The notes: generated from the sequence alone by a model not told the origin. A DNA stretch of 35,103 nt from Anaerolineales bacterium (GCA_026985785.1 JALSPT010000163.1:1-35103), one strand, 5' to 3'. Positions 15,331 through 32,927 are shown, numbered from the stretch's first letter. Numbers and translations are program-made.

Positions 15331-15996
<666 letters not shown>

Positions 15997-18361: not shown

Positions 18362-18901
18362 ATGCAGACAGTAAAAATTGTGGTCACGGGCCCCTTTAGC
18401 GCTGGCAAAACGGCTTTTATCCAGACTGTCAGCGAGATCGACGTCGTCTCCACGGAGCGCAAGATCAGTAGTGAGGCGGAAAAGATCAAAGACACCACGA
18501 CTGTAGCGATGGACTTTGGCCGCATCACGGTAGATGATGATCTTGTGCTTTACCTCTTCGGCACGCCGGGGCAGAGGCGCTTTGATTTTATGTGGGAAAT
18601 TCTTTCAGAGGGTATGCTGGGCTTTATCGTGTTGGTAGATAGCACGCGCCCCGAAACCTTCCGTGAAGCACGCAGTATTTTGGAAACCTTCCGCGCTTAT
18701 GCCCCAACGCCCTACGTTGTGGCTGCTAACAAGCAAGATCTGGAAGATGCCTGGGAGTTGGAAGACATGCGGATTGCTTTGCGGCTCGATCCGCAAGTAA
18801 AACTGGTGCCGTGCGTGGCAACGGACAAAGAGTCGGTGAAGAAGGTTTTGTTGGAGTTGTTGTTGAGTATTATGGAAGAGATCGAAGGTGGCGCTTCGTA
18901 A
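18362..18901 (+). CDS. small Ras-like GTPase of the MglA/CvnD (ATP/GTP-binding protein) type
   Basis: P-loop GPFSAGKT, G3 LFGTPGQ and G4 NKQD. It is 179 aa. Confidence 0.85.
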   Translation: MQTVKIVVTGPFSAGKTAFIQTVSEIDVVSTERKISSEAEKIKDTTTVAMDFGRITVDDDLVLYLFGTPGQRRFDFMWEILSEGMLGFIVLVDSTRPETFREARSILETFRAYAPTPYVVAANKQDLEDAWELEDMRIALRLDPQVKLVPCVATDKESVKKVLLELLLSIMEEIEGGAS

Positions 18902-18955
18902 CGTTGACAAACGCAAGCACGCCTTCATAAGGAACCAGATACGTGGGGCAAGAGG

Positions 18956-18985
18956 GGGCGAGGTGGAAAAGCCTCGCCCTGTTTT
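18956..18985 (+). terminator. rho-independent terminator after the GTPase gene
   Basis: GGGCGAGG-tggaaaag-CCTCGCCC followed by TGTTTT. Confidence 0.6.
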
Positions 18986-19074
18986 CATCGGCTGGCAGGC
19001 GGTGCTCCCGAGGGTTGACCTGCGGGTGGGGGCGCTGGCCGAGAGGAAGATTGTGAAAACTGTGTGAGGCGTTT

Positions 19075-19902
19075 GTGTCATCAATTACTACGGATCAAGG
19101 CGTTGTTCATTACGAAGTGTTTGGCCGCGGCCAACCGGTGATTTTGCTGCACGGTTGGTTGGGCTCGTGGGGGGTGTGGCAGGAGACGATGGCCTACCTG
19201 GGGCAATATTATCGCGCCTATGCCCTGGATTTTTGGGGGTTTGGAGAGTCGGGTAAGAAGCGCGAGTCCTACGATGTTGCCGATTTTGTCAGCCTGGTTG
19301 ACCAGTTCATGGAACAATTGGGTATTGCTCAAGCGCCTTTGGTCGGCCATAGTATGGGCGGAACGGTGGCGTTGAGCGTGGCCATTCAATATCCCCATCG
19401 GGTGACCCGTGTCACGGTGATTGGGTCGCCAATTGACGGCAATTCCCTGGCTTTGGCACTCAAGTTGGCCGGTTATCGCCCGATTGCTTTCCTGGTGTAC
19501 CGTTTCATGCCTTTGCTTCAACTGGGTATTCGGTTGAGCTCACCGTTTGTGACCAAGGACCCCCGCTGGCCGGAAATGATGGATCGCGACCTTTCTCAGA
19601 CCACGCTGGAATCCTTCCTTCATAGCATTGCCTCTTTGCGCCGCACGAATTTACGCCCCTCTTTGCGCCAAATCCGCCAGCCCGTCCTCGGAATGTATGG
19701 CGATAAAGACGTGATCGTTAGCCCACGCCAGTGGATACCGCTTAAGCAGGGCGTGCCCCATGCTCAGATCGTGCGCTTTCGTGAGGCTGGGCATTTTATC
19801 ATGCTCGATCAGCCTCAGGCCTTTATGCATACCCTGCACGCTTTCCTGGATGGCCGTCCTGTAGTGAAAGATCACGGTGCTGAGGGCACAAGGCGAGTAT
19901 AA
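19075..19902 (+). CDS. alpha/beta hydrolase (intact Ser-Asp-His triad)
   Basis: GTG start with GAGG 5 nt upstream. It has HGWLGSWGVW, the nucleophile elbow GHSMGG, GDKD and GHF. Confidence 0.85.
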   Translation: MSSITTDQGVVHYEVFGRGQPVILLHGWLGSWGVWQETMAYLGQYYRAYALDFWGFGESGKKRESYDVADFVSLVDQFMEQLGIAQAPLVGHSMGGTVALSVAIQYPHRVTRVTVIGSPIDGNSLALALKLAGYRPIAFLVYRFMPLLQLGIRLSSPFVTKDPRWPEMMDRDLSQTTLESFLHSIASLRRTNLRPSLRQIRQPVLGMYGDKDVIVSPRQWIPLKQGVPHAQIVRFREAGHFIMLDQPQAFMHTLHAFLDGRPVVKDHGAEGTRRV

Positions 19903-20438
19903 TGGCGGTGGCGCCCAAGATGGTAGGCACAGAGGCCGTGCAAACAGCCTGGCAGGCCGCAATAGAGGAGATTCTGGGGCCGGAGCAAGACGTTTTGGGT
20001 GAGCGTTTGCCTTCCTGGCAAGGGGCTGTCGCGGCGCTGTGCGGTTACTATGGCGAGCGTGCGGGAAAAGGGCTAAGCGTGCGGATAGGGCGTGCTTTTG
20101 CGCGGCGCCTGGTTCCCCTGTTCGCGGAACAGGCGGGCTTTCAAAGCGCGGCATTCCGTTTTTTGCCCTGGCCGCGGAAGGTGGTGCGCGGCCTGGAACG
20201 GTTGGGAGCGTTCGCCCGCCAGTGGTTTGTTGTACCCGTTACGGTGGATGTGCAGGAAACAGAAATCGTGTGGCGTTTCGCCGCATGCCCCTTTGGGGCG
20301 ACGTGGGCGGGCAGTTGCGCGCTTTGGCAGGGTTTCTTGCAGGAAATACTCTACTGGCTTAGCGGCGGTCGTTGGTTTGCCGTGCACCTGGATGGTAAGA
20401 AGCCTCTTTTACGGGTGCCCCGGCGTCCGTTGCATTGA
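19902..20438 (+). CDS. hypothetical protein, possibly with a V4R-like small-molecule-binding domain
   Basis: 178 aa. Its ATG overlaps the upstream TAA (TAATG), and the next gene starts directly after its stop. The C-terminal FAACPFGATWAGSCALWQGFLQEILYWLSGG resembles the Cys-containing V4R pattern, but this is a weak call. Confidence 0.5.
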   Translation: MAVAPKMVGTEAVQTAWQAAIEEILGPEQDVLGERLPSWQGAVAALCGYYGERAGKGLSVRIGRAFARRLVPLFAEQAGFQSAAFRFLPWPRKVVRGLERLGAFARQWFVVPVTVDVQETEIVWRFAACPFGATWAGSCALWQGFLQEILYWLSGGRWFAVHLDGKKPLLRVPRRPLH

Positions 20439-21731
20439 GTGCTCGCGATGCTTAAAATCATTCTCCACGACGACCGGCATATTGCCCCCTTCAACGAGCC
20501 TGCGCGTGACTTGCGGATCCAGAACAAGCCGCTCTGGCTGGCGCAGCGTGACGTGCTGACGCCGTACGTCGACCGGGAAATCGAAATCCGCGCTGGTCAG
20601 CAACTGCCACCTATTCGGGAAGAGGTCATTGCTTATCGGGACAACCTCTTCTTCGACGAATTCTATTTGCGCGCTTTTCTGGAGGAAGCCCGCCGCCGCA
20701 ATAAACCGGTGCGCGCGGCTTTTTCTGCCAACGACCCGGCCTTTCGGGAGCACGCTCTCCCGCTTTCCATCTCCTATACGCCGCAGGGCGATATTTACCT
20801 TGCCGACCTCTGGTATTACCCCCACGGCACGGTGACGGATGAGGAGCCGGAACCTCTGGTGATCGATTTGCTGGCGCGTGAGATTGGCTACTATCACGTG
20901 CCCACTTATATGGCCACCGAACAGGGCGATCTGGTCTTTCAGGTGCCTTTGCGGGCCTTGATTGCCATCGATAGTTGGGTACACATTTTCATCGCCGATG
21001 TGGTGTTTGGCGTGTTTGCCCGCGGGGCGCGCTTCGAAGAGCGCCTCAACCGCGACCCCCTTTTCAAACTCAAAATCCTGGCCACGGCCATGTACGAAGG
21101 CAAACAGGTGCTTTCTTCTTCCCCGCTGGTGCAAGTAGGGCGCAATGTGGTGATCGACCCCACGGCGGTCATTCACGGCCCGACCATCATCGGCGACAAC
21201 GTCACCATCGGCGCCGGGGCGGTGATCGACAATTGCGTCATTGGTGATAACGTGAATGTCTCTCAAGGCTGCCAGTTGCTGCTTTCGGTGGTGGGGGATG
21301 GCGCTTTCTTGCCTTTCCGGGCGGCGCTCTTTATGACCACTTTCATGGACAACAGCATGGTAGCCCAAAACGCTTGCTTGCAGATGTGTGTGGTGGGGCG
21401 CAATACGTTCATTGGCGCGGGCACCACGTTTACCGATTTCAACTTGATTTCGGCGCCTATCAAAGCGCGCGATGGGCATGGCGTGTTGCGGGATTCCAAT
21501 CGCCCGGTGCTGGGCGGCTGTGTGGGGCACAATTGCCGTTTAGGCTCTGGATTGGTGATCTATCCTGCCCGGATGATTGAGTCCGACGTGGTTTTGGCGG
21601 CAACGCCGGAGCGCCGTGTGATTATGAAAGACGTCTCGTACGAAGAAAGCGACCACCACCATCTGCGAGGAGGCCATCGTCACCCGCGCCTCTATCCCCG
21701 CCCGGGTGAAACATCCTCTCAAAGTTGGTAG
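20439..21731 (+). CDS. left-handed beta-helix (hexapeptide repeat) protein, GlmU-like putative nucleotidyl/acyl transferase
   Basis: Hexapeptide run VVIDPTAVIHGPTIIGDNVTIGAGAVIDNCVIGDNVNVSQG. The N-terminal KIILHDDRHIAPFNEPARDLRI resembles the alternative GlmU-like family. The start is either GTG at 20439 or ATG at 20448. Confidence 0.7.
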   Translation: MLAMLKIILHDDRHIAPFNEPARDLRIQNKPLWLAQRDVLTPYVDREIEIRAGQQLPPIREEVIAYRDNLFFDEFYLRAFLEEARRRNKPVRAAFSANDPAFREHALPLSISYTPQGDIYLADLWYYPHGTVTDEEPEPLVIDLLAREIGYYHVPTYMATEQGDLVFQVPLRALIAIDSWVHIFIADVVFGVFARGARFEERLNRDPLFKLKILATAMYEGKQVLSSSPLVQVGRNVVIDPTAVIHGPTIIGDNVTIGAGAVIDNCVIGDNVNVSQGCQLLLSVVGDGAFLPFRAALFMTTFMDNSMVAQNACLQMCVVGRNTFIGAGTTFTDFNLISAPIKARDGHGVLRDSNRPVLGGCVGHNCRLGSGLVIYPARMIESDVVLAATPERRVIMKDVSYEESDHHHLRGGHRHPRLYPRPGETSSQSW

Positions 21732-22836
21732 TGCCGTGGATACTTTCGCTTTCATCATTCACCCCATCGACCCCAAGCGAGACGTGAGCCGCAAGTTCCC
21801 TCTTTTGGGGCGCATTTTGACCGAGCGGCAGATTGACTTCTTTTCCACCTTTTTCCCTCCCGTGTATATCTCGGAGATTACCGGCATCACTTCGGAGGCC
21901 ACGGGCAAAGAGATCAAGGGATGGTTCGTTGCCTGCCCTTACACGCCCCGCCGGATGTTGGAACTGCCCGAAAGGGTGGTGTATCGCAAGATCATCCAGA
22001 CCGGTCGGCTGGCCGAGCGGCTGGGCGCTAAAATTTTAGGATTGGGCGCGTTTACTTCGGTAATTGGTGATGGCGGCCTGACCATCGCTCGGGCGTTGGA
22101 TGTGCCGGTCACCACGGGCGACGCTTACACCGTTGCCATCGCAGTGGAAGCCGTTTGGGAGGCCGCTCGCCTGATGGAGATCGACCCGTCCAATGCCGTG
22201 GCTGCCGTGGTTGGGGCCACAGGTGCGATCGGGCGAGTGGCTGCAACGCTCCTTGCACGGCGCGCAGGTGAGGTATACTTAATTGGGCGCCGCAGCGAGG
22301 CGCTGGAGGCCGTGCGGGAGCGTATTGCTGCCGACGGTGGACGGGCTGACCTTAAAATCAGTACCGAGATGAGTGACCTACGCAAGGCACAGTTGATCTT
22401 GACGGTAACCAGCGCGCTGGATGCCGTCGTAGAGCCTGAGCATCTCCAGCCCGGTAGTGTGGTCTGTGATGTGGCTCGCCCGCGAGATGTGTCGGCGCAG
22501 GTGGCAGCGGCGCGGCAGGACGTGCTCGTCATCGATGGCGGTATGGTGCAGGTGCCGGGGCCGGTGAATTTCCATTTCGACTTTGGTTTCCCTCCAGGAA
22601 AGGCCTATGCCTGCATGGCCGAAACGATGGCGCTGGCTTTGGAGGGACGCTTTGAAGATTACACGGTTGGCAAAGAAATTTCCCTCGCGCGGGTAGAGGA
22701 GATCGCCCGCATTGCCGGTAAGCATGGCTTTCGCTTGAGTGGTTTCCGCTCGTTTGAAAAAGCGGTAACCCCCGAACACATTGCTCGTGTACGTGCCCTG
22801 GCCAGGAAGCGGCGGGCGCAGCGGGCAGGGAGGTAG
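21706..22836 (+). CDS. acyl-ACP reductase (Aar)-like NAD(P)-dependent oxidoreductase
   Basis: Colinear with cyanobacterial Aar as I recall it: FAFIIHPID, LGLGAFTSVIGDGG, TTGDAYT, VVGATGAIG, and the catalytic-Cys context YACMAETM (Cys codon at 22612-22614). An alternative GTG start lies at 21736. Confidence 0.75.
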   Translation: MKHPLKVGSAVDTFAFIIHPIDPKRDVSRKFPLLGRILTERQIDFFSTFFPPVYISEITGITSEATGKEIKGWFVACPYTPRRMLELPERVVYRKIIQTGRLAERLGAKILGLGAFTSVIGDGGLTIARALDVPVTTGDAYTVAIAVEAVWEAARLMEIDPSNAVAAVVGATGAIGRVAATLLARRAGEVYLIGRRSEALEAVRERIAADGGRADLKISTEMSDLRKAQLILTVTSALDAVVEPEHLQPGSVVCDVARPRDVSAQVAAARQDVLVIDGGMVQVPGPVNFHFDFGFPPGKAYACMAETMALALEGRFEDYTVGKEISLARVEEIARIAGKHGFRLSGFRSFEKAVTPEHIARVRALARKRRAQRAGR

Positions 22837-22839
22837 ATT

Positions 22840-23733
22840 ATGGGCAAGGCTCGCATCTTGGTCGTGGAAGACGATCTGGACATCGCCAATATGTTACAGA
22901 TCTATTTTTCCAGTCAGGGGTACGATGTGGAAATTGCCCCTCGCGGTTACGACGCGTTGGAAAAAACCCGTCACAGTATGCCCCACCTCATTGTGCTGGA
23001 CATCATGCTCCCTGACATCGATGGGTATGAAGTCTGCCGCCGTTTGCGCACCAGCACCCGCACCAGCCACATCCCTGTGATCTTCCTGACGCAGAAAGAC
23101 GAGCGCAGTGACCGCCTGCAGGGGTTGGAATTAGGCGCGGATGATTACATCACCAAGCCGTTCGATATCGAAGAATTGCGGTTGCGGGTGCAAAATGCCA
23201 TTCGGCGGGCGGAGCGTGAGAGCCTGACCGACCCCCGCTCCGGCCTGCCGGCGGGGCGGCTGATCGAGGAGCAACTGCGGCGCATCATACGCACCGACGG
23301 CTGGGCGTTGATGGATATTCGCATCAACCATTACGATGCCTTTCGGGAAGTGTATGGCTTTGTGGCCGCCAACGATGTATTGCGTTTTACCGCCATGTTG
23401 CTCAATGAAGTGGTGGACGAATTGGGCGGGGCCGAGGATTTCATCGGCCATCCGGGAGACGAGAACTTTGTCGTCATTACCACCGAGGAGGCTGCAGCGC
23501 CTATTCGCGCCCGCCTCAAAGAGCGGTTTGCCGAAGAGGTCAAGAGCCACTACAACTTCATCGACCGCGAGCAAGGTTACATTACAGTAGAGGAACAAGG
23601 CAAACAACGGCGGGTGCCTTTGATGACGCTTTCCATCGGCATTGTATCGCCTTCGCAATATCAGTTCGCGGATATTCGCGAGATCACCGAACTGGCAGCG
23701 GAAGCGCGGCGTAAAGATCTGCCGGCTGCTTGA
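22840..23733 (+). CDS. response regulator, REC plus a degenerate GGDEF domain
   Basis: REC motifs VVEDD, VLDIMLPDIDG and ITKPF. The output domain has the GGDEF layout (TDPRSGLPAGR...DIRINHYDAFREVYGF...), but GDENF replaces GGDEF and there is no RxxD I-site. Confidence 0.85.
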   Translation: MGKARILVVEDDLDIANMLQIYFSSQGYDVEIAPRGYDALEKTRHSMPHLIVLDIMLPDIDGYEVCRRLRTSTRTSHIPVIFLTQKDERSDRLQGLELGADDYITKPFDIEELRLRVQNAIRRAERESLTDPRSGLPAGRLIEEQLRRIIRTDGWALMDIRINHYDAFREVYGFVAANDVLRFTAMLLNEVVDELGGAEDFIGHPGDENFVVITTEEAAAPIRARLKERFAEEVKSHYNFIDREQGYITVEEQGKQRRVPLMTLSIGIVSPSQYQFADIREITELAAEARRKDLPAA

Positions 23734-26700
23734 GCACCCTCGCGAGGTCACGAGAGCCCATGCTGGGAACCGAAGTCGTTGCAGTAGGGATTGTGTTGGC
23801 GGTCGTTGGGGCCGGTTTTCTGTTGATGGCCCGAACGCTGGCCGCGCTTGCCAGCATGGGAGGTGGAAAAGAAGCCGCCCTTGCCTTGCCAGCCCAGCCG
23901 CTGCAGGCGCCGGAAGAGGAAAGCGCGGGGGTCATCGTTGTGGCTTCGGGCGGCAGGGTAGTGTACCTCAACCGTGTGGTACGGGAGTGGCTCGATTTGC
24001 TCCCGGAGGATCGGCCTTCTTTGGAGTTCCTGCTACACCGTGTACGCCCCGACGACGAGTTCATGCGATTGTGCAGCCAGCCGGGGGAAGCGCGTCTCAA
24101 TTTGGCCGCCCGGGCGCTGGAAGCCCTCTCGTATGCTGTGCCTTACAAGGGGGAATTGGCAATGGCGATTGTATTGCGCCCGTTGTCTGTGAGCGCCACA
24201 GGGGAGGAAGGGGGGGGCAATTCCCCCGTCGCCGAGATGGTGCGCCGTTTCGTGGTGTTGGGGCAGAAAATTGCCACCCATTTGGATTTCGAAGAAGCCC
24301 TGTTGGCCGTGGCAGAGATGCTGGCGGAGATTTTGCCTTTTGATGTCATGGAAATCACCCTCTGGGACAAGCGCCACGAGCGTCTGGTGCCGTATCGCTA
24401 CGCGATAGAAGAGGGAAAAGTGCTGCGTCATCCGGCGACAGAACGCTATGCTCCCGAAGAGAGTCTGAGTGGTTATGTATTGCGGCAACGGCAACCAGTT
24501 TTGGTTGCGGATTTGGATCATGAAGCGCCGGTGACCGCTGCTATCAATCGCCGCCGCTACCCCATTCGCGCTTACCTGGGCGTCCCGTTGGTGGTAAACG
24601 AAAAGCCCATTGGCACATTGGAAATCGCTTCTTTTACCCCGGGGGCTTATACCGTTGCGGACCAGAACTTCTTTGCTTTGGCGGCAGTCGATATCGCCGT
24701 GGCGGTATATAACGCTCGCCGTTTCAGCGAGACCTCTCGGCAATTGCAGGAACTGCGCAACCTGGCAGAGATGGCGCGGGCAGTGGGAGGCGTCAAAGAG
24801 GCGCGTCAACTTGTGGCGCATATTATGCGCAATATCAGCGCTTTGCTCTCGGCCCAGGTTATGGGATTTCTTTTCTACGACGAAGTACACCATGTGTTGC
24901 AGGCGCAGTGGCCTTTCAAGGGGCTGCCTGAGGGCTTTGTAGAGGCTTATCGAACCCGCATACCGTCGGGAGGGCGCGCGGAGGCTTTGTTGTTGCAGGG
25001 TGAGCCGTTGGTAACGGATGATGCGGTCACCGATGAGCGGTGGCAGGTTTTGGGGCTGGCCGAACTGAGCAAAGTAGCGGGTATTCACCACAGTGTGTTG
25101 TACCCTCTCAACACGGGTCAGCGTTCGTTGGGTTTTCTGCAGGTCGCCAACAAACCGGAAGATGCACCTTTCGATACGGATGACCTGGAAGTGTTGCGTT
25201 TGATTGTGGGGCAGGTGGTGCCCTTGTTGGAAAACGCGGTTTTGTTCGAAGAGGCCCGGCAGCGCGCCCAGCGCGCTGAGGCGCTGCGGCGCATTGCCAG
25301 CCTGGCGGCCTCTGAGGCTACCTTGGAGGAACTGTTCAAGTTCTCGCTGGTGGAGATGGCGCGTTTGGTGGGCGCCCGCTATGGGGCGGTACTGCTGTGG
25401 GAAGAAGAAGGTCTTGTGCCTCATGAGACTTCGGTGTATGGTCTTTCACCGGAGCAGGCGCGCGCCGTTGGTGTCATCCGTGCCGACGCTCCCGATTTCC
25501 TCCTTACCGTCAGCCGCACAGGGCGGCCTTTCTTAAGCCGAGATGTGCAGAATGACCGCCGTGTGGCACGAGCCTACCGTCCGATTTTGAAGACTTTACC
25601 TGATGTGCGGGCGGCGCTGGTTGTGCCCATGCAGGCGCATGGTGAAAAGGTGGGGGAAATTTTGTTGGGGAGCGACCGCCCGGGACAGTTTGACCGGAGC
25701 GACTTGCAATTGATAGCGGCAGCCGCGGCGCAGCTGGCAGTAGGGGTCGAGCGGCAGCGGTTGTTGGCGCAGAGCGACGAAACGTTGCGCTCGCAAGTGC
25801 GGGAGTTGAGCACCCTGACCCGCCTCAGTCGCGAACTGGCCGCTGTGTCTTCCCTTGAAGAACTGCTGCGCTACGCTCATCGCCAGGTTGTCGAGCTCAC
25901 CGCTGCTGACTGTGGGCATACGCTGGTGCTGGAGGCAAGCGAGGAGGGAAAATGGCACGTGTTGCACCAGGCGGGTGGCCCCTGCAGAGCACGCTTGCAT
26001 CCGTTGGATGAGCACGCCCTTGCGCAGGGTGTGCCTGTGGACGTGAGCGATTACCGTACCTCTTCGTACACGGCGCCCCACGAAGGTGTGCGTTCGTCAT
26101 TGGTGTTGCCCTTGTTGTACCAAAACGAAATAGTGGGCGTGTTGCACTTGCATGCCCACCAGCCCAATCATTTCGATTACACCCGCCGCCGCTTTGCGCA
26201 CATGTTGGCGCAACACATCGCGGTAGCCATTGGCCACGCCCGCGAAATGCGACGCCTTTTTGACCACAATAGGGCGTTGCAGCACAAAGCGCGAGGCCTG
26301 CAGCGCTTACAGGATTTTTTGCAAACCCTACACCCCCTGGCCGAAGAAGATGAGATTTTTGAACGCTTTGTGGCCCTGATAAGCGATACGGCGGGTTTTG
26401 ATGCGGTGCTTTTGGCGCGCTACGATGTGGCCAGCGGCAGGTTGAACCCTGTCGCTGTGAGGGGGTTCACCGAAGTCGCTCCGCTGCCATGGGATGCATT
26501 GAACCTTTTGCTGGAAGACCGCTTTGGGCAGGGAGAGGTGTATTTCATCCCGGCAGAAGAACGGCCACCGCTACCGGCGAACTTGCATTTACCTGCGGCG
26601 AACACCAGTTTGCCTGCGGATGTTGACGAAACGACCTGGCGCCCCGAAGACCTTTTGCTGGTGGCATTGCGCATGCCTGAGGGGGAGTTGCTGGGTGTAG

Positions 26701-29700
26701 TGTATCTGGATGCGCCGCGGGAGGGACGCCGCCCCGACGAGGCGACGTTGGAGGTGTTGCGTTTGCTGGGCGCAGAAGGCGCCTGGCTGTTGGAAGTGCG
26801 CCATTTGTTGGAAGGATGGGGGGCAGAACGGCGCTACTTGGAAGATCGTGTCCGCGAGGCTGAAGAGGTCACCCGTCAGGTTCAGCGTGACTTGCCGCGC
26901 TGGCTGCGCAAGGACCTGCAACAGGCCATTGACCGCTACACGTTGGCGCAGCGGGCGGAGCGTTTGCGGGTGAGCCTGGAGGTGACCACGGTGCTCAATC
27001 GCCAGCCCAGCCGTAGCGGAGTGCTCAATGCGTTGGGTAGGCAACTTGTAGAGCGGTTGGGCTTCAATTACGTGCTCATCGCTGAACCAACGCCTTTCCG
27101 GGGCGATGGTGAAGAGGGTGGTGTGCGGCTGTTTCGTGTGTTTGGGGAATTGCCACCCGGTTCCCGCTTGGATATGTTGCTGGGGCAACGTAATCCTTTG
27201 ACCGAGGTGTTGCGAGAGGGGAAAGTGCTCATTGTGCCTGATATCGGTCGCGACCGCTCATGGGAACGCTCTCCCCTCCTCCAACGGCTGCAAGCCCAAA
27301 GTTTTGTGGCGTTCCCCATCGTCGTTGAGCAACAGGGTGAAGGGGGGCGCCCGCGAGGCGCGGTGCACCATCTGGTGTTGGCCACTTCCAGCGCCCCAAT
27401 GGCTTCCTCCTCCCATGCAGATGCCCTGGTCTTCGAACTGCTTGGGCGGCAGGTGGGCATTGTTTTGCAAAACCTGGAATTGCTGGCGAATACCTCTCGC
27501 CGCCTACGGGTAGCCGATTTATTGCTTTCGTTCAGCAGCCAGTTGGGCGTGTTGGATCCCGGAAGAATTCTCAATACTCTGCTGGAGAGCGCCTTGGGCG
27601 TGCTGCAGCAACACGCCCATGCCGGCTTTGTGGCTTTGTGGGACCCTGAGCAGGAGATGCTCCGTTTGCAGGCCGCGGGGGGCTATGCTGCGCCGGATGA
27701 AATGTTGAAAGTGGCGCTCTCTGCCGATAGTTTGCCCGCCCGGGTGATGTTCGAAGGGCAACCGCGCCGCATTGGCGAACTGGACTTTGCCGCGGCTTAT
27801 CCCCTGGATGCCGAAGGTCTGCTTGCTTATCAGAAGGCTACGGCAGAGCGCATTCCTGTTTCCACCATGATCGTGCCCTTGGGCAGTGGCAAACAAGCGT
27901 TGGGAGTGGTGGTGTTGGACAATTTCAACACCACGGCTGCTTTTACGCGCGAAGACCAGGATTTGATCGTTTCGCTGGCTCGACAAACAGCCCTGAGCCT
28001 GGAAAACGCCCGCCTTTTGCAGACGGCTGAGCGCCGAGCCGCGCAACTCCATGCCCTGGCGGCTGCATCGGCGGATATCGTTGCGCGTAGCCTTTCCCTG
28101 GAAGAAATCGAGTCGTCTCTGCTGGAGCAACTGGCGCAGGTGTTGCCTTACGATGGGGGCACGTTGTGGCTGCGCGAAGGTAAAAACTTGCGAGTGCGCG
28201 ACGCTCGCGGATTTCCCAATGCCGATGAACTGGTAGGCATTACCATCGCGATCGAGGATAGCCGTTTGTTCCAGGATATGTTGGCTGCCCGCCGGGCTTT
28301 GGTCGTTCACGATACCCATGCCGATAACCGGTTCCCTTCGCCGGAGGTGGTGCCCAATCGCTCCTGGCTTGGGGTACCGCTGCGTTTCAAGGACGAAGTG
28401 TTGGGCGTGATTGCGCTGGAAAAGAAAGAGCCGCACTTCTTCACGCGCGATTGGGTGGAAACGGCAGAAACGTTTGCCAGCCAGGCAGCGGCGGCCTTGG
28501 CCAATGCCCGTCTGTACGAAGAAAGCCTGCATCGTTCGGAAGAACTCGACCGGCGCAGTCGGCGGTTGGCTTTGGTTTACGAGGTGACAGCCGAACTTTC
28601 GTCCTCGCTTGACCCTCACTACATCGCTACTTATACTGCCCGGCGGCTGCACGAGGCGTTGGGAGCCGTGCCGGTCTCGCTGGTTTTGTGGCAAGAAGAG
28701 CAGCCCATCCTGGTGGCAGAAGCGCCGTCTGTATCGGAGACGGGGGGACTGCCGCGTGTTCTGCCTGCAGCGCCCTTGTTTGCCCATTTGAAGGAAACGC
28801 TGGGCATCTTTCGCACGGAGGACTATGCCGAAGAGCCGTTGATGGCGCCTTTGCTCGATTTCCTGGCCGCGCGGGAGGGGCATGAGGTGGTGGCCGTGCC
28901 CTTGACGGCGGGCGAAACTTTCTTTGGCGTGGTGTTTCTCCATGTGCCTGCAGGGCGCGATGTGGGTAGTGAGGAGATCGACCTGGCTCAAACGGTAGCA
29001 AAGCAGGCGGCGGTAGCGTTACAAAATGCCCATTTGTATGAAACCACGCGCCGTTTCAGCGAAGAACTGGAAGCGCGGGTCAATGCTCGAACCCGGGAAT
29101 TGCAGCGGGAGCATCATCGTGCTCAAACGCTGTTGCGCATTATGGGCGAACTTTCTGCCAGCCTGGATCTCGACCAGGTGCTCAACCGCACGCTTGACCT
29201 GCTCAACGAGGCTCTCAGCGCCGAGCAGAGCAGTATCTTGCTGGCGCGCTCCGGTGAAAGCACGCTGTTTTTCCGGGCAGGCCGGGGCTATACCGAGCAG
29301 CCGCCGGTGGGAGGACGCCCCACCGATATTTCGGCCAAAGATTCGCTGGCAGGCTGGGTCATCCAGAACAATCAGCCGGTTTTGATCGCCGATCTGAGGC
29401 AGGATCCCCGCTGGAGCGAAAAGCCGCACGGTTTACCCACGGCGCACCGTAGCGTGCTCGGCGTGCCGTTGGTGGTGGCGCAGGAAACGTTAGGCGCTTT
29501 GTTGCTCTTTCACCCGGAGCCTCATCATTTTACGGACTATCACCTTGACCTCGCCGAGGCGACGGCCAAGCAGGTGGCGGTCGCCATCAACAACGCCGAA
29601 CTCTTCCGCCTGATTCGGGAGCAGGCGGAGCGGTTGGGTAAATTGCTCCGCCAGCAGGAAGTCGAGGCCAGCCGGGCACGAGCGATCCTCGATGCTATTG

Positions 29701-30773
29701 CCGACGGCGTGTTGGTGACCGACGCCAAGGGCAAGATCACGCTGTTCAACCCTTCGGCAGAGCGTTTGCTGGGCTTGTCTGCCGATCAGGTGGTCGGCCA
29801 GCCTTTGGAGCACTTTGTGGGCTTTTTCGGCTCGGCGGGTCGGCAATGGATGGAAACCATCCACACCTGGTCGGAGGAGGTGGAGGCCGAAGGGAACGAG
29901 CCGACGACGTATGCCGAACAACTGGAATTGGATGATGGGCGGGTCGTGTCGGTACACCTGGCGCCGGTGTTCTTCCGCCGCGAGTTTCTGGGGACGGTTT
30001 CAGTTTTTCGGGATATTACGCACCAGATTGAGGTTGACCGGTTGAAATCCGAATTCGTGGCCACCGTATCCCATGAGTTGCGGACGCCGATGACGGCCAT
30101 CAAAGGCTATGTGGATATCCTCTTGATGGGCGCGGCTGGGCCTCTCACCGACCAACAGCGCCGGTTTTTGAAGACCGTGCAGAGCAACACCGAGCGCCTC
30201 AATTTGCTGGTGGGTGACTTGTTGGATATCTCCCGCATCGAGGCCGGGCGTATCGCGCTTGTGATGGAGGCGCTGAACCTGAAAGAATTGCTCGAGGACG
30301 TGGTGAACGAGCAACGCCGTTTGGCCGAGGAAGCCGGGCGGGAGATCGTGGTGGAGGTGGCCGTGCCTGAGGATCTGCCGTTGGTGCGCGGCGACCATGA
30401 GCGGGTACGCCAAATTGTGGAGAATCTGATCGAGAACGCCTATCGTTACACGCCCGACGGGGGGCGGGTGCGTGTGACAGCGATGACAAAGGATGGTGAA
30501 GTGCAGGTTGATGTGTCCGATACCGGGATCGGCATTTCCCCCGAGGAGCAGCAACGGGTGTTCGAGCGGTTTTATCGGGGTGAAAATCCCCTCGTGATGG
30601 CTTCGGCAGGCACCGGTTTGGGGTTGGCGATTGTCAAAACGCTGGTCGAGATGCACGGTGGGCGCATCTGGGTCGAAAGCAGCGGCGTGCCGGGCGAAGG
30701 GAGCACGTTCTCCTTCACGCTGCCGGTCTATACCGAGGAAGACGAGCAACATTCAGCAGCAGGAGAGGCTTGA
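23730..30773 (+). CDS. giant sensor histidine kinase: TM, PAS-like, about ten GAF modules, PAS, HisKA, HATPase_c
   Basis: 2347 aa. The GAF C-terminal helix motif recurs ten times (for example AVALQNAHLYET, AAALANARLYEE, ALSLENARLLQT). The H-box is SHELRTPMTAIKGY (His codon at 30072-30074). The N and G boxes are ENLIENAYRYTP, DTGIGI and GTGLGLAIV. The start is TTG at 23730 or ATG at 23760. Confidence 0.9.
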   Translation: MSTLARSREPMLGTEVVAVGIVLAVVGAGFLLMARTLAALASMGGGKEAALALPAQPLQAPEEESAGVIVVASGGRVVYLNRVVREWLDLLPEDRPSLEFLLHRVRPDDEFMRLCSQPGEARLNLAARALEALSYAVPYKGELAMAIVLRPLSVSATGEEGGGNSPVAEMVRRFVVLGQKIATHLDFEEALLAVAEMLAEILPFDVMEITLWDKRHERLVPYRYAIEEGKVLRHPATERYAPEESLSGYVLRQRQPVLVADLDHEAPVTAAINRRRYPIRAYLGVPLVVNEKPIGTLEIASFTPGAYTVADQNFFALAAVDIAVAVYNARRFSETSRQLQELRNLAEMARAVGGVKEARQLVAHIMRNISALLSAQVMGFLFYDEVHHVLQAQWPFKGLPEGFVEAYRTRIPSGGRAEALLLQGEPLVTDDAVTDERWQVLGLAELSKVAGIHHSVLYPLNTGQRSLGFLQVANKPEDAPFDTDDLEVLRLIVGQVVPLLENAVLFEEARQRAQRAEALRRIASLAASEATLEELFKFSLVEMARLVGARYGAVLLWEEEGLVPHETSVYGLSPEQARAVGVIRADAPDFLLTVSRTGRPFLSRDVQNDRRVARAYRPILKTLPDVRAALVVPMQAHGEKVGEILLGSDRPGQFDRSDLQLIAAAAAQLAVGVERQRLLAQSDETLRSQVRELSTLTRLSRELAAVSSLEELLRYAHRQVVELTAADCGHTLVLEASEEGKWHVLHQAGGPCRARLHPLDEHALAQGVPVDVSDYRTSSYTAPHEGVRSSLVLPLLYQNEIVGVLHLHAHQPNHFDYTRRRFAHMLAQHIAVAIGHAREMRRLFDHNRALQHKARGLQRLQDFLQTLHPLAEEDEIFERFVALISDTAGFDAVLLARYDVASGRLNPVAVRGFTEVAPLPWDALNLLLEDRFGQGEVYFIPAEERPPLPANLHLPAANTSLPADVDETTWRPEDLLLVALRMPEGELLGVVYLDAPREGRRPDEATLEVLRLLGAEGAWLLEVRHLLEGWGAERRYLEDRVREAEEVTRQVQRDLPRWLRKDLQQAIDRYTLAQRAERLRVSLEVTTVLNRQPSRSGVLNALGRQLVERLGFNYVLIAEPTPFRGDGEEGGVRLFRVFGELPPGSRLDMLLGQRNPLTEVLREGKVLIVPDIGRDRSWERSPLLQRLQAQSFVAFPIVVEQQGEGGRPRGAVHHLVLATSSAPMASSSHADALVFELLGRQVGIVLQNLELLANTSRRLRVADLLLSFSSQLGVLDPGRILNTLLESALGVLQQHAHAGFVALWDPEQEMLRLQAAGGYAAPDEMLKVALSADSLPARVMFEGQPRRIGELDFAAAYPLDAEGLLAYQKATAERIPVSTMIVPLGSGKQALGVVVLDNFNTTAAFTREDQDLIVSLARQTALSLENARLLQTAERRAAQLHALAAASADIVARSLSLEEIESSLLEQLAQVLPYDGGTLWLREGKNLRVRDARGFPNADELVGITIAIEDSRLFQDMLAARRALVVHDTHADNRFPSPEVVPNRSWLGVPLRFKDEVLGVIALEKKEPHFFTRDWVETAETFASQAAAALANARLYEESLHRSEELDRRSRRLALVYEVTAELSSSLDPHYIATYTARRLHEALGAVPVSLVLWQEEQPILVAEAPSVSETGGLPRVLPAAPLFAHLKETLGIFRTEDYAEEPLMAPLLDFLAAREGHEVVAVPLTAGETFFGVVFLHVPAGRDVGSEEIDLAQTVAKQAAVALQNAHLYETTRRFSEELEARVNARTRELQREHHRAQTLLRIMGELSASLDLDQVLNRTLDLLNEALSAEQSSILLARSGESTLFFRAGRGYTEQPPVGGRPTDISAKDSLAGWVIQNNQPVLIADLRQDPRWSEKPHGLPTAHRSVLGVPLVVAQETLGALLLFHPEPHHFTDYHLDLAEATAKQVAVAINNAELFRLIREQAERLGKLLRQQEVEASRARAILDAIADGVLVTDAKGKITLFNPSAERLLGLSADQVVGQPLEHFVGFFGSAGRQWMETIHTWSEEVEAEGNEPTTYAEQLELDDGRVVSVHLAPVFFRREFLGTVSVFRDITHQIEVDRLKSEFVATVSHELRTPMTAIKGYVDILLMGAAGPLTDQQRRFLKTVQSNTERLNLLVGDLLDISRIEAGRIALVMEALNLKELLEDVVNEQRRLAEEAGREIVVEVAVPEDLPLVRGDHERVRQIVENLIENAYRYTPDGGRVRVTAMTKDGEVQVDVSDTGIGISPEEQQRVFERFYRGENPLVMASAGTGLGLAIVKTLVEMHGGRIWVESSGVPGEGSTFSFTLPVYTEEDEQHSAAGEA

Positions 30774-30774
30774 G

Positions 30775-31149
30775 ATGGCGAAGATTGTGATTGCGGAAGA
30801 TGAACCCGATATTCGTGATTTGATCACTTTTACCCTTCAGTTTGCAGGCCACGAGGTCATCCCCACGGCCAACGGTGCCGAAGCGGTGGAGGCCGTGCGT
30901 CGCGAGATGCCGGATATCGTGTTGATGGATGTGCGGATGCCTCGTTTGACCGGTTACGAGGCCTGCCGTCAGATCAAGGCCGATGAGGCAACCAAAAACA
31001 TCCCGGTCGTTTTCCTCTCGGCCAAAGGACAGGAAACGGAAGTGAAAGAGGGCTTGGAGGCCGGAGCTATCGATTACATCCTCAAGCCTTTTGCCCCCGA
31101 CCAGTTGACGGCCCGGGTGGCCGAGATCTTGGCGCAGACCAGACGGTAG
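30775..31149 (+). CDS. single-domain CheY-like response regulator
   Basis: ATG 1 nt after the kinase stop, with AGGAGAGG upstream. It has AEDEPD, VLMDVRMP and ILKPF. Confidence 0.9.
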   Translation: MAKIVIAEDEPDIRDLITFTLQFAGHEVIPTANGAEAVEAVRREMPDIVLMDVRMPRLTGYEACRQIKADEATKNIPVVFLSAKGQETEVKEGLEAGAIDYILKPFAPDQLTARVAEILAQTRR

Positions 31150-31197
31150 CATGAAAAAAGCGGCGCTGCTCACCGCGGCGCGGGCGAGGACAACCCG

Positions 31198-31986
31198 ATG
31201 AGTGCCATTATTATTCGTGACCATATTGTGCATTATGAAGTGCTGGGGCGTGGTCGCCCGGTGCTTTTCCTGCACGGTTGGGTGGGGTCGTGGCGCTATT
31301 GGGTGCCCGCCATGCAAAGCGCTTCGCAGCGTTATCGCGCCTATGCTTTGGATTTGTGGGGGTTTGGTGATAGCGATAAGCACCCTGACAACTACTCGTT
31401 GGAGGCCCAGGTTCACCTTTTGGCGGCGTTTTTGGAAGAAATGGGGATCGGCAAGGTCGCCATTGTGGGGCATGGCTTGGGGGCGGTGGTGGCGCTCTTG
31501 TTCAGCCTGCAATACCCACTGGTGGTCGACCGGCTGGCGGCGGTGGCGATGCCCAGCACGGTGGACGCCATTCACCCTCGCTTGAGTACCGACTCGCCGG
31601 AGAAACTGGCTGCCTGGCTGTTGACGCCGACCCTTTCGACCGAAACAGCCCGTAAGGAAGCCCCCAAGACCGATCCGCAGGCGATTACCATCTCTCTGCG
31701 CGAGTTGCGGGGGATGAATTTGCTCGCTGAGGTGGTCAAGATGGAAGCCCCCTGTTTGCTCATCCACGGACAGAACGACCCCTTGATCCACTTACCCACT
31801 GAAGCCACCCTGGCGCGCTTGCCCGACAACATGCACCAAATCATTTTCGAAGGCTCCGGCCATTTTCCCATGCTGGATGAGCCCAGCAAGTTCAATCGCT
31901 TGATCTACGATTTCCTGTTACTCGATTCGGGGGAGAGCCCCAAAGTGCTCCAGTTGAAGGAAGAATGGAAACGGCGCGTGCGCTGA
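31198..31986 (+). CDS. alpha/beta-hydrolase-fold protein lacking the nucleophile serine (paralog of 19075-19902)
   Basis: The first 100 residues align without gaps to the other hydrolase (HYEVLGRGRPVLFLHGWVGSW). At residues 91-96 GHGLGA replaces GHSMGG. The Asp (GQND) and His (GHF) positions are kept. Confidence 0.8.
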   Translation: MSAIIIRDHIVHYEVLGRGRPVLFLHGWVGSWRYWVPAMQSASQRYRAYALDLWGFGDSDKHPDNYSLEAQVHLLAAFLEEMGIGKVAIVGHGLGAVVALLFSLQYPLVVDRLAAVAMPSTVDAIHPRLSTDSPEKLAAWLLTPTLSTETARKEAPKTDPQAITISLRELRGMNLLAEVVKMEAPCLLIHGQNDPLIHLPTEATLARLPDNMHQIIFEGSGHFPMLDEPSKFNRLIYDFLLLDSGESPKVLQLKEEWKRRVR

Positions 31987-32927
31987 AGCGAAACCGATCC
32001 CCCCTACGGCGGAGGCGCATTTTCCTTTGGGGGTTCCTGCCGTTGGTGGGGATGTTGCTTTTCGGGGGTTGTGCTTCCCCGCTTGCACCGGCGTTGCCGC
32101 CCACGCCCACGCCGTGGGTACCGCCGACAGTGGCGTGGACGCCTACACCTGCTCCCACCGCGCTTCCCTCCCCTACGGCGACGCCCTCGCCCACGGCCAC
32201 GCCCACCCCTTTGGCCTGCTGGCAGCGGGGGGGGCGGCTGGTCTTCCATCGGTTAACCTCTCGCTACCTTGCTTACGCTATGCCGGTGGTGGTGTACCTG
32301 CCGCCGTGTTACGACCAGCAACCTGAGCGCCGTTACCCGGTGTTGTACCTGATTCACGGGCAGAACTTCGACGAGCGCCAGTGGGTGCGGTTGGGGGCTA
32401 CGGCGGTCGCCGATCGCCTGGCTGCTTCGGGGGCGGCACCGCCGTTCGTGATCGTGATGCCCGGCGAGCGCACGTGGGAGCAACCCGCCGAGACGGGATG
32501 GGATGAGGCGTTTCTGCAAGTGCTGATGCCGTGGGTAGAAGCGACGTTTCGGGTGCGCAACGAGCGTCGTTACCGAGCGATCGGTGGGCTCTCGCGCGGG
32601 GCGTCCTGGGCAATTCATTTAGGGCTTTCGCACTGGCAGTTGTTCGGCAGCGTGGGAGGGCACAGCCCGCCGGTGTTTTGGGAGGACGTTCCCCACATTC
32701 GCCGCTGGTTGGCGGCGATTCCCGCGGGGCAGTGGCCGCGTATTTATTTGGATATCGGCGATGCCGATCAGCAGCAGATTTTGGCGTCGGCGCGCTGGTT
32801 CGAGGGGGTGCTCACCGCGGGAGCGTATCCGCATGAATGGCATTTCAACGTCGGACGCCACGATGAGGATTACTGGCGCGCCCATGTCGAGGAGTACATC
32901 CGTTGGTACGCTGCGGGGTGGAAATAG
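31965..32927 (+). CDS. putative esterase-family lipoprotein with a Pro/Thr-rich linker
   Basis: Signal peptide with lipobox LLFGGC, and a PTPTPWVPP...TPSPTATPTP linker. It has VLYLIHGQN and GGLSRGA (GxSxG). Confidence 0.7.
   Translation: METARALKRNRSPLRRRRIFLWGFLPLVGMLLFGGCASPLAPALPPTPTPWVPPTVAWTPTPAPTALPSPTATPSPTATPTPLACWQRGGRLVFHRLTSRYLAYAMPVVVYLPPCYDQQPERRYPVLYLIHGQNFDERQWVRLGATAVADRLAASGAAPPFVIVMPGERTWEQPAETGWDEAFLQVLMPWVEATFRVRNERRYRAIGGLSRGASWAIHLGLSHWQLFGSVGGHSPPVFWEDVPHIRRWLAAIPAGQWPRIYLDIGDADQQQILASARWFEGVLTAGAYPHEWHFNVGRHDEDYWRAHVEEYIRWYAAGWK

Follow-up and report, generated by a model that had tools for sequence, protein, structure and literature searches.

What is encoded by a tightly packed run of same-strand genes in which enzyme-like proteins are interleaved with signalling proteins? 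The question arises from a 35,103-nucleotide stretch of Anaerolineales bacterium DNA, hereafter the window, for which the original prediction proposed a nine-gene operon (g1 to g9) with no internal terminator. The nine open reading frames do lie where they had been placed, all on the plus strand, as do all features described below. With longest-ORF starts, the junctions from g1 to g9 are also as predicted: a 1-nt TAATG overlap, 0 nt, a 26-nt overlap, 3 nt, a 4-nt overlap, 1 nt, 48 nt and a 22-nt overlap. Three of these lengths change with ortholog-based starts. Because ortholog alignments begin downstream of the longest-ORF starts (residue 4 of g3, residues 7 to 11 of g4 and residues 9 to 11 of g6), ATG 20448, GTG 21736 and ATG 23760 are the likelier start codons of g3, g4 and g6, giving junctions of +9, +4 and +26 nt before these genes. 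Every junction within g1 to g9 still measures at most 48 nt, and the tight packing is therefore real. The 16-codon mini-ORF said to bridge g7 and g8 exists (31151 to 31201), without conservation in relatives, where the spacer is 1 to 47 nt long and unrelated in sequence. A terminator scan returned 29 terminator-like matches against 22.3 ± 4.8 expected and, in agreement with the prediction, none that is convincing inside g1 to g9; the top candidate of the region sits within the ORF of the kinase, g6.

Genomic neighborhood analysis shifts the boundaries of this unit. The sample comprised 80 Anaerolineae genome loci anchored on g3, plus diverged metagenome loci; the 80 best loci all belong to a single family-level clade. 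Across them the neighbors recur in the same order and on the same strand: u1, u2 and g1 in 75 loci each, g5 in 73, g6 in 71, g7 in at least 63 and g8 in at least 60, the last two counts being lower bounds set by the flank length compared. Neither flank of the block is conserved in the 80 loci, none of which contains the window genes 5' of u1. The conserved block spans positions 17502 to 31986 and encodes, in order, u1 (PATAN/DUF4388), u2 (GTPase), g1 (hydrolase), g2 (V4R), g3, g4, g5, g6, g7 (CheY) and g8. It opens two genes earlier than the proposed operon (17502 to 18326 and 18362 to 18901) and closes one gene sooner, so that u1 and u2 belong to it and g9 does not. Non-syntenic orthologs had been named in advance as evidence against a new functional unit; the orthologs are syntenic across the 80 loci, and the unit stands as a conserved neighborhood, not a chance run of genes, albeit within other limits. 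Direct verification upheld the predicted domains of the hydrolase, the left-handed beta-helix (LbH) protein, the Aar/PigE-N-like protein, the REC+GGDEF protein, the GAF kinase, the CheY, the second hydrolase and the esterase. The original prediction did not recognize the combination as a described system, and the literature searched yielded no description of it; the cluster is a new arrangement of already known signalling parts. Anti-phage defence models (PADLOC) gave only generic receiver-domain matches to PD-T4-6 (∼1e-6).

Diverged loci, in which g3 is 47 to 51% identical, keep pieces of the gene order: u1-u2-g1-g3-g4 in L100, g3-g4-g5-GAF kinase in L099, V4R-g3-g5 in L101 and V4R-g3-g5-x-GAF kinase in L106. 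Thermanaerothrix loci retain only u1-u2-g1-(g2)-g3, and g3 homologs sharing no more than 39% identity occupy unrelated contexts. The deepest-conserved core consists of the V4R protein, g3, the REC protein with a degenerate GGDEF domain and the GAF kinase. The sole gene kept in every partial version is g3, the hub common to both halves of the cluster. In the closest relatives, identity reaches 85 to 93% for g3, 87 to 94% for g5 and 88 to 93% for u2, against 52 to 67% for the kinase and 38 to 51% for g2. Inheritance of the cluster is vertical; it is confined to Chloroflexota, and Anaerolineaceae conserve it best.

Transcription signals are consistent with a unit that begins at u1. The region's closest match to a sigma-70-like promoter (17413 to 17441; TTGACG-17-TATAAT, 11/12 consensus) lies 60 nt 5' of u1 and is the probable start of the transcription unit. 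In the 173-nt spacer between u2 and g1, a GC-rich hairpin followed by a T-run (18955 to 18990; 10 pairs, 7 GC) resembles a terminator or attenuator, so the unit may be transcribed as two parts in this window. This hairpin is lineage-specific, with similar ones only in L002, L003, L005, L006 and L007, and the spacer is no longer than 55 nt in 70 of 75 loci. One could argue from it that no single function exists and that u1-u2, g1-g4, g5-g8 and g9 are independent units, adjacent by inheritance in one family. The restriction of the best loci to one clade fits this, as does the separation of the halves in Thermanaerothrix, L099, L101 and the Anaerolinea thermolimosa list (PMC8756737). We nevertheless find it very unlikely: both flanks have been reshuffled around an intact block, the g3-g5-kinase order persists at 47 to 51% identity (MreB of the lineage is 71 to 75% identical to that of named Chloroflexota), and the gaps between genes leave no room for separate promoters.

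The first gene of the block, u1 (17502 to 18326), encodes a PATAN/DUF4388 (PatA_N) protein (Pfam DUF4388, 2.3e-29) with a weakly winged-helix-like C-terminus (Pfam MarR_2, 0.0035). Its neighbor u2 (18362 to 18901) encodes an MglA-family small GTPase of 179 residues (Pfam ATP_bind_1, 6e-21; Ras, 1e-10), 80 to 93% identical in 75/80 loci. The defining motifs of the MglA family are all present and highly conserved in orthologs: the P-loop (GPFSAGKT), the G3 motif with Thr replacing Asp (TxxGQ; TPGQ in u2) and NKxD (NKQD). Over its full length u2 matches PDB 3t12 (E 2e-7), the MglA structures ranging from 2e-7 to 1e-6. No MglB/Roadblock partner (Robl_LC7) was matched among the window ORFs scanned, and a Roadblock gene occurs near a cluster only at the diverged locus L106, adjoining a non-orthologous GTPase. 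The window contains no pilus or gliding genes. PATAN genes occasionally adjoin MglA group 1/5 genes (PMC4316618), and PATAN regulators of Synechocystis are reported to bind the type IV pilus motor (bioRxiv 10.1101/2021.06.11.447907).

Three genes encode the two-component proteins. The response regulator g5 (22840 to 23733), 59 to 94% identical in 73/80 loci, combines an intact REC domain (Pfam, 8e-30) with a degenerate GGDEF domain (2e-7) whose Pfam match covers only positions 3 to 112 of 161. The diguanylate cyclase motif GG[DE]EF is missing from the window copy (PGDEN) and from orthologs (mostly GGDNF, also GGADF or GGSDF), and the upstream sequence GGAEDFIGH contains no RxxD I-site; g5 is therefore not expected to synthesize c-di-GMP or to bind it at an I-site. 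The histidine kinase g6 (23760 to 30773; ∼2340 residues) carries a transmembrane helix (residues 14 to 36), nine clear GAF domains (185 to 1953), a PAS domain, HisKA (SHELRTP, 1e-21) and HATPase_c (1e-30). It is 33 to 67% identical in 71/80 loci, and its orthologs in L099 and L106 reach 2988 to 3011 residues. The CheY-like single-domain receiver g7 (30775 to 31149; Pfam REC, 8e-30) has conserved Asp and Lys. The signature residues of a two-component system are in place, namely the H-box and HATPase_c of g6 and the DD, D, T and K of both receivers, conserved in 64 to 71 orthologs.

Of all cluster members, the protein encoded by g2 (19902 to 20438) evolves fastest; it is probably a degenerate V4R-domain protein. 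The window copy has no Pfam match, and none to V4R (PF02830) even at E 10; the V4R-like assignment is supported by its positional orthologs, of which 18/26 match Pfam V4R (best E 2e-12) and 11 match MetOD1. Genes 5' of g3 in L101 and L106 match the g2-ortholog HMM at E 1e-54 to 1e-55. Against the PDB, the g2 profile retrieves solely the V4R proteins MopR, PoxR and MJ1460, weakly (E 1.3 to 2.1). Missing from the window copy is the terminal ExxC...C, and with it the Cys metal ligands; the whole gene is missing from about 9 of the 80 loci.

Structurally, g3 (20448 to 21731; Hexapep, 1e-15) joins a nucleotidyltransferase-like N-terminal domain to a left-handed beta-helix. Its AlphaFold2 model (pLDDT 92.9) has the two-domain fold, and Foldseek matches it to ST0452 (E 3e-14), GMPPA/B (5e-11), GlmU (1e-9) and also eIF2B, with TM scores of 0.57 to 0.64. 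The Gly-rich GxGxR NTP loop is deleted family-wide: the profile alignment gaps two residues in AagSGER, and the family consensus has no Gly at the NTP-loop positions. H308 of ST0452, the catalytic His of the acetyltransferase site, has no counterpart in g3: it forms an insertion relative to the family profile and falls opposite Gln307/Asn308. Both losses come from a profile alignment and a structure prediction, and g3 may yet have enzymatic activity. Were it a GlmU/ST0452-type sugar-1-phosphate nucleotidyl- or acetyl-transferase, with g1 as deacylase and the kinase and receivers as mere regulators, the cluster would be a two-component-controlled operon for envelope or exopolysaccharide modification. 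The complete ST0452/GMPPB/GlmU fold (profile match E 1e-16), the GlmU-related database annotation of the family and the GT2/LPG-synthase gene beside distant homologs speak for this. Such a role is quite unlikely, however, given the deleted loop and unaligned general base, a conserved block devoid of glycosyltransferase, flippase or polymerase genes, and a constraint on g3 (70 to 93% identity across genera) exceeding that on other cluster members.

The optional member g4 (21736 to 22836) is an Aar/PigE-N-like acyl-thioester reductase (PigE model, 2e-63; TIGR04058, 4e-31) that scores far below the equivalog cutoffs (108.5 versus 449.7 bits for TIGR04058 and 215 versus 850 bits for PigE). It matches PDB 4ppm (4e-36) and Aar 6jzq (4e-26), its catalytic Cys aligns with that of Aar (ACMAET versus ACFAEAM) and the GxxGxxG motif is kept; the enzyme is probably active. 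It is found in 36/80 loci and absent from 44/80, many of the latter with a g3-g5 gap of 20 to 200 nt. Its presence in the diverged loci L099 and L100 makes it an old member. No aldehyde-deformylating oxygenase (ADO) or aminotransferase partner is encoded in the block.

Three further proteins are hydrolase-like. The alpha/beta hydrolase g1 (19075 to 19902; Pfam Abhydrolase_1, 1e-33) has an intact Ser-Asp-His triad (GHSMGG), its Ser invariant in 76 sequences and its Asp and His each kept in 75/76. The last gene of the block, g8 (31198 to 31986; Abhydrolase_1, 1e-24), shares 31 to 33% identity with g1 and had been called a dead hydrolase. This is borne out, Gly replacing the nucleophile (GH-G-LGA) in 37/37 orthologs with Asp (37/37) and His (36/37) retained. 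The secreted esterase thought to close the operon, g9 (31965 to 32927; PF00756, Pfam Esterase, 7e-26; motif GLSRG), is predicted to be a lipoprotein or a secreted enzyme, its sequence suggesting a signal peptide and a lipobox-like LLFGGC. Only the closest relatives (L081, L082, L084 and L085) have it next to g8, and homologs at ∼50% identity lie away from the cluster, making g9 a lineage-specific appendix.

These proteins bear on the original proposal, offered as an example, that a lipid-derived signal is produced, sensed and turned over by the cluster. Here g4 would make a fatty aldehyde by reducing an acyl-thioester, g3 would transfer acyl groups, g1 and g9 would hydrolyze esters, and the V4R and GAF domains would bind the product, which the kinase would report. 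The intact Cys and GxxGxxG of g4, its age, the intact triad of g1 and the binding of phenols, palmitate and similar hydrophobic ligands by V4R/TRAPPC3-fold proteins (PMC10933270) all agree with it. As a pathway, however, the small-molecule module is not supported: g4 is optional, g2 is degenerate in the window and at times lost, g3 lacks the NTP loop and the ST0452 His counterpart, g8 lacks the nucleophile, g9 is linked only locally, and the block encodes neither an acyl carrier nor a ligase nor an enzyme that would consume the aldehyde. We therefore consider a lipid signal unlikely.

We favor, with modest confidence, a reading in which a two-component phosphorelay is linked to a small-GTPase switch and accompanied by enzyme-fold proteins that look partly like pseudoenzymes. 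Catalytic motifs are retained in the kinase, in the GTPase, in g1 and in both receivers; gene adjacency is the sole basis for the phosphotransfer partners and for every protein-protein link proposed here. The membrane-anchored, cytoplasmic multi-GAF kinase g6 would integrate several intracellular ligands and phosphorylate the adaptor g5 and the receiver g7. Since neither g5 nor g7 has a DNA-binding output, the signal would be relayed through protein-protein contacts, its likeliest recipients being the highly constrained g3 and its V4R partner g2. In Anaerolineaceae it would also reach the PATAN protein u1 and the MglA-like switch u2. The active g1 and nucleophile-less g8 may form a ligand-processing/ligand-binding pair, with g4 and g9 as lineage-specific accessories. 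By analogy with PATAN and MglA, our guess at the output is cell polarity, motility on surfaces or the behavior of filaments. A bolder version, which we regard as a long shot, makes g3 a pseudoenzyme of the eIF2B-gamma/epsilon/GMPPA type that, with the V4R protein, forms a GEF/GAP-like platform replacing MglB and switched by the relay from kinase to g5. In this version the V4R fold is ancestral to the TRAPP subunit Bet3/TRAPPC3, and the platform would be a bacterial counterpart, built of the same folds, of eukaryotic multi-subunit GTPase regulators.

Filamentous and abundant in digesters, sediments and wastewater, the Anaerolineae are bacteria for which, to our knowledge, almost no genetics exists. 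An order of ∼10 genes kept across genera between reshuffled flanks makes it likely that the cluster encodes a central behavior of these organisms. A single operon unites a phosphorelay with a Ras-like GTPase switch and with proteins of enzyme fold that have lost catalytic signatures; the joining of these three signalling logics provides testable candidates for small-GTPase regulation in bacteria without an adjacent MglB. Constraint is strongest on g3, g5 and u2, whose sizes suit in vitro work.

Comparison with known systems places the cluster near several of them. With the MglA/MglB polarity switch of Myxococcus and Thermus, u2 shares the TPGQ Thr, the P-loop, NKxD and full-length alignment, though the resemblance to MglA structures is weak (E 2e-7), and the block pairs a PATAN gene with the GTPase, as in MglA groups 1 and 5. 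Unlike that switch, it has no MglB/Roadblock GAP, and the 10-gene operon around u2 also encodes a giant kinase, g3 and a pair of alpha/beta-hydrolase-fold proteins. The actinobacterial conservon (CvnA-D) and mycobacterial Mfp operon are likewise conserved operons in which a histidine kinase is encoded together with an MglA-family GTPase and a protein containing a helix-turn-helix-like region. Of the four conservon genes, however, only the kinase and GTPase classes are represented, Roadblock (CvnB) and DUF742 (CvnC) being absent; the kinase here is a multi-GAF HisKA protein with cognate receivers, and there are additional enzyme-fold members. Like PleD and PopA, g5 is a receiver with a GGDEF-fold domain, its signature degenerate as in PopA, but it has a single REC, a GGDNF/PGDEN motif and no RxxD I-site. 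Small alpha/beta-hydrolase-fold proteins in a signalling operon may be compared with RsbQ-RsbP of Bacillus and KAI2/D14 of plants; in those known receptors the nucleophilic Ser is intact, where g8 invariably carries Gly. With cyanobacterial Aar and the PigE N-domain, g4 aligns end to end, catalytic Cys included, and lies closer to PigE (2e-63); it differs as an optional member without an ADO or aminotransferase partner. Finally, g3 shares its two-domain fold with ST0452, GlmU, GMPPA/GMPPB and eIF2B gamma/epsilon. It departs from these proteins in sequence (12 to 14% identity, Gly-rich loop deleted), in a long helical linker predicted by the model (residues 177 to 217) and in its genomic partners, which are signalling proteins. 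GMPPA and eIF2B gamma/epsilon have lost their catalytic signatures, and g3 resembles them in this respect.

The cluster is best read as a two-component and small-GTPase signalling operon, and the findings favor a conserved signalling unit over a biosynthetic pathway. Between a divergent Ser/Thr kinase gene and a convergent ABC ATPase gene, eleven plus-strand genes follow in succession at 17502-32927 of the window. The series opens with a PATAN/DUF4388 protein (u1, 17502-18326, 2e-29) and a 179-aa small GTPase (u2, 18362-18901; ATP_bind_1 6e-21, Ras 1e-10), followed by an alpha/beta hydrolase (g1, 19075-19902; Abhydrolase_1 1e-33), a protein with no Pfam match (g2, 19902-20438) and a protein with a hexapeptide/LbH match in its C-terminal half and none over its first 220 aa (g3, 20439/20448-21731). 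The next gene, g4 (21706/21736-22836), matches the PigE N-domain (2e-63) and the acyl-ACP reductase TIGR04058 (4e-31), both scoring far below cutoff. Three signalling proteins come next: g5 (22840-23733) combines a receiver domain (REC, 8e-30) with a partial GGDEF domain (2e-7), g6 (23730/23760-30773) is a giant kinase with nine GAF stretches, PAS, HisKA and HATPase_c, and g7 (30775-31149) is a CheY-like receiver. A second alpha/beta hydrolase (g8, 31198-31986) and g9 (31965-32927), an esterase of family PF00756 that has a signal peptide and lipobox-like LLFGGC, complete the series.

A scan with g3 as query, one genome per species, returned 522 relatives, and the best 80 of these 522 loci were used for synteny, with presence defined as same order and strand around g3. 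All 80 belong to Anaerolineae (g3 identity 70-93%) and include Levilinea, Bellilinea, Ornatilinea, Longilinea, Leptolinea, Thermanaerothrix and Anaerolinea along with many MAGs. The PATAN gene, the GTPase gene and g1 are each in place in 75/80 loci, g5 in 73/80 and g6 in 71/80, while the counts for g7 (63/80) and g8 (60/80) are limited by the 10-kb flank. That these genes travel together, as the original prediction implied, is thus borne out for g1 and g5-g8 in 60-75 of the 80 loci. Two members are variable: g2 was recovered by tblastn in 42/80 loci, with an ORF of at least 110 aa occupying the g1-g3 gap in 64/80 and about nine loci too tight to hold it, and g4 is found in 36/80, the g3-g5 distance in the others often being 20-200 nt. 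The esterase g9, proposed as the closing gene of the operon, is in place in 0/80 loci. In a metagenome scan, only the closest relatives (66-81% identity) had it behind g8, and its homologs at ∼50% identity stand in other gene contexts; synteny rules it out as a member. In other genera, g8 is followed by unrelated genes (thiamin pyrophosphokinase with a binding protein, DHFR, signal peptidase II), and none of the 80 loci has a homolog of the window's upstream genes in the 7 kb 5' of its PATAN gene. Because neither g9, the downstream genes nor the upstream genes are conserved alongside, the conserved block runs from u1 to g8 (17502-31986), replacing the predicted nine-gene boundaries of 19075-32927 with a unit that takes in u1 and u2 and leaves out g9.

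The junctions originally listed for the nine genes are reproduced when each ORF begins at its first possible start codon. Ortholog alignments start at g3 residue 4, g4 residues 7-11 and g6 residues 9-11, which makes ATG 20448, GTG 21736 and ATG 23760, respectively, the likelier starts and changes three junctions from 0, -26 and -4 to +9, +4 and +26 nt. The tight packing survives this revision, with all gaps at most 48 nt. The mini-ORF described between g7 and g8 does exist (31151-31201) but is absent from relatives, where the 1-47 nt between g7 and g8 are unrelated in sequence, and it is taken as a chance occurrence.

A terminator scan gave 29 sites against 22.3 ± 4.8 expected by chance, with no convincing site inside the nine-gene range, in agreement with the claimed absence of an internal terminator. 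The single strong hairpin with a T-run (18955-18980) lies 5' of g1. The u2-g1 spacer measures at most 55 nt in 70/75 loci and reaches 113-173 nt, with a GC-rich hairpin and then Ts within, only in the window and its nearest relatives; this hairpin is best read as a lineage-specific terminator or attenuator-like element inside an ancestrally contiguous operon. The best promoter-like site by sequence match (17413-17441, 11/12 matches) is located 5' of the PATAN gene. Rfam searches, run over the full window and at higher sensitivity over 17200-19150, found no riboswitch or known RNA, only generic miRNA-model hairpin matches. The divergent spacer between the Ser/Thr kinase and PATAN genes also contains two adjoining near-perfect hairpins (17262-17337), the first with a CT-rich stem of 17 bp (CCTCCCCCTCCCCTCCCTT/AAGGGAGGGGAGGGGGG) and the second with a stem of 16 bp (GGCGGAGGCTGTCCTC/GAGGACAGCCTCCGCC); the pair folds at -56 kcal/mol (z = -3.6) and matches only generic miRNA hairpin models in Rfam.

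The kinase g6 carries one N-terminal TM helix (aa 14-36) and nine clear GAF domains (aa 185-1953), then PAS, HisKA (SHELRTP) and HATPase domains. It would most plausibly phosphorylate g5 and g7, neither of which has a DNA-binding output. The g5 receiver is intact, its GGDEF signature reads PGDEN in the window and GGDNF/GGADF/GGSDF in orthologs, and g5 contains no RxxD site; judged by these motifs, g5 should neither make c-di-GMP nor bind it at an I-site. The GTPase retains GPFSAGKT, TPGQ and NKQD, the Thr of its G3 motif being an MglA hallmark, and shows a full-length, weak match to MglA structures. In the closest relatives, g3 (85-93% identity), g5 (87-94%) and u2 (88-93%) are the most constrained proteins, the kinase (52-67%) and g2 (38-51%) being less so. 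These three form the likely interaction core, and g3 joins the two halves of the cluster.

Structurally, g3 is predicted to combine a nucleotidyltransferase domain with an LbH domain. A Pfam search of the N-domain alone gave no match, and a first AF2 run on an alignment of 23 close orthologs reached a pLDDT of 55 with weak fold matches only. The final alignment of 44 sequences, including relatives at 22-50% identity, yielded a model with pLDDT 92.9 whose best structural match is ST0452 (E 3e-14, TM 0.57-0.64), with GMPPA/GMPPB, VTC1, GlmU and eIF2B subunits also matched. In the profile alignment with ST0452 (E 1e-16), the Gly-rich loop AAGSGER stands opposite a shortened, glycine-free stretch, and His308 of ST0452, which we take to be a catalytic residue, has no counterpart in the g3 family profile. 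These losses suggest that g3 may either be a pseudoenzyme or catalyse an altered chemistry. Many database entries label family members 'multidrug transporter', a name that looks like a propagated mis-annotation, since the protein shows no features of a transporter.

The two hydrolase-fold proteins share 31-33% identity. The g1 triad is conserved (Ser in 76/76, Asp in 75/76 and His in 75/76 sequences), whereas g8 has Gly at the nucleophile position in 37/37 orthologs while keeping Asp and His. As predicted, this paralog is catalytically dead, and it is a non-hydrolase that is old and has been maintained. The description of g2 as V4R-like holds for the family, with 18/26 positional orthologs matching V4R (best 2e-12) and 11/26 matching MetOD1, but not for the window copy, which has lost the terminal ExxC...C ligands and matches no model, even in a Pfam search of g2 alone. 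The sole PDB matches of the ortholog profile are the V4R structures MopR, PoxR and MJ1460, at non-significant E values, and a PDB sequence search with u1 and g2 gave nothing usable. V4R has a fold related to that of TRAPPC3, a TRAPP subunit, and its ligands are small hydrophobic molecules (PMC10933270). The g4 protein aligns end to end with PigE (4ppm, 4e-36) and Aar (6jzq, 4e-26), the Cys of its ACMAET motif falling opposite that of ACFAEAM in Aar, and is probably an active thioester reductase. The original prediction of a unit for production, sensing and turnover of a lipid-derived signal is possible for clades carrying g4; it cannot be what the cluster does at its core, since the cluster can do without g4, g9 and sometimes g2.

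The conserved signalling unit can be followed in pieces beyond the 80 loci. Searching 1.84 billion cluster representatives with g3 brought up 986 relatives, some of them full-length at identities as low as ∼25%. Around representatives at 47-51% identity, parts of the cluster are kept: PATAN-GTPase-hydrolase-g3-g4 (L100), g3-g4-REC/GGDEF-GAF kinase (L099, kinase of 2988 aa), V4R-g3-REC/GGDEF (L101) and V4R-g3-REC/GGDEF-unknown-GAF kinase (L106-L108, kinase of 3011 aa). In both L101 and L106, the V4R gene is a clear g2 ortholog (ortholog HMM, E 1e-54 to 1e-55). The MreB beside L106 shares no more than 71-75% identity with named Chloroflexota proteins, so this lineage is not close to the Anaerolineaceae set, and its MreB neighbor places it no finer than Chloroflexota. 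No support was found for the unannotated L106 proteins (297, 315 and 425 aa) being hidden homologs of PATAN or hydrolase proteins. At 39% identity or below, g3 relatives neighbor cupin/squalene-cyclase-like, radical-SAM or glycosyltransferase genes, and Thermanaerothrix loci hold the first half only, u1-u2-g1-(g2)-g3. Comparison of full, partial and half clusters leaves g3 as the sole gene common to every version and V4R-g3-REC/degenerate GGDEF-GAF kinase as the oldest core.

Several loci show further peculiarities. Beside the diverged L106-L108 cluster, a second small-GTPase module adjoins mreB (1217-6340, minus strand), consisting of a Ras/Arf-like GTPase not orthologous to u2, two unannotated proteins (315 and 425 aa), a Roadblock/LC7 protein and a V4R protein of 506 aa. 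In Leptolinea sp. UBA5203 (L076, 11337-13428) the giant kinase is missing, and the receiver with degenerate GGDEF, CheY and nucleophile-less hydrolase are directly consecutive. Levilinea saccharolytica KIBI-1 carries the whole cluster twice on one contig (L011 and L012; NZ_LGCM01000042.1, ∼42.4-79.3 kb) as an inverted repeat, its arms identical over at least 17 kb and its spacer ∼2.3 kb long; the copies have the same sequence except for a 1667-3994 stretch, and the doubling is either a true duplication or an assembly artefact.

Elsewhere in the window, composition steps strongly from ∼65-71% G+C (1-9000) to 53-61% in the signalling cluster and its near neighbors (10000-32000), returning to 65-69% at 32-34 kb. 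A minus-strand menaquinone-type operon (within 3524-9702) encodes MenE-like AMP-ligase (3524-5092), MenB-like enoyl-CoA hydratase (5119-5985), MenD-like TPP enzyme (6010-7857) and isochorismate synthase-like protein (7854-9098), with no MenH-type hydrolase in the operon; a TetR regulator gene is located at 9088-9702 and a glycogen synthase gene at 1145-2581. A minus-strand fatty-acid kinase set comprises DegV (11722-12612) and FakA-like (12569-14251) genes with an Asp23-family gene (14261-14671), beside NUDIX hydrolase (10688-11188) and PsiE-like (11185-11718) genes. The ribulose-phosphate 3-epimerase ORF (15331-16713, minus strand; Pfam match aa 244-440) has an Arg/Pro-rich N-terminal extension of 240 aa, which is probably no real fusion but an ORF called too long in G+C-rich DNA.

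In phyla that have been little studied, conserved clusters without a known function are common; the present one shows good conservation and lends itself to testing. No support was found for a defence role, PADLOC having matched no defence system. The view that the combination is not a described system stands: the literature searched holds no description of the whole cluster, the hub g3 or the invariant nucleophile-less hydrolase. Its trace there is the first half only, in a neighbor table of Anaerolinea thermolimosa listing DUF4388, GTPase, MhpC-like hydrolase and 'glmU' beside nirS (PMC8756737). The component families are all known, as is the PATAN-GTPase pairing: an earlier study already noted PATAN and MglA genes in association (PMC4316618), and in one cyanobacterium PATAN regulators bind the pilus motor (bioRxiv 10.1101/2021.06.11.447907). 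Nothing in the window links the cluster to pili or gliding; as a gene pair, the PATAN protein and MglA-like GTPase resemble polarity and motility switches.
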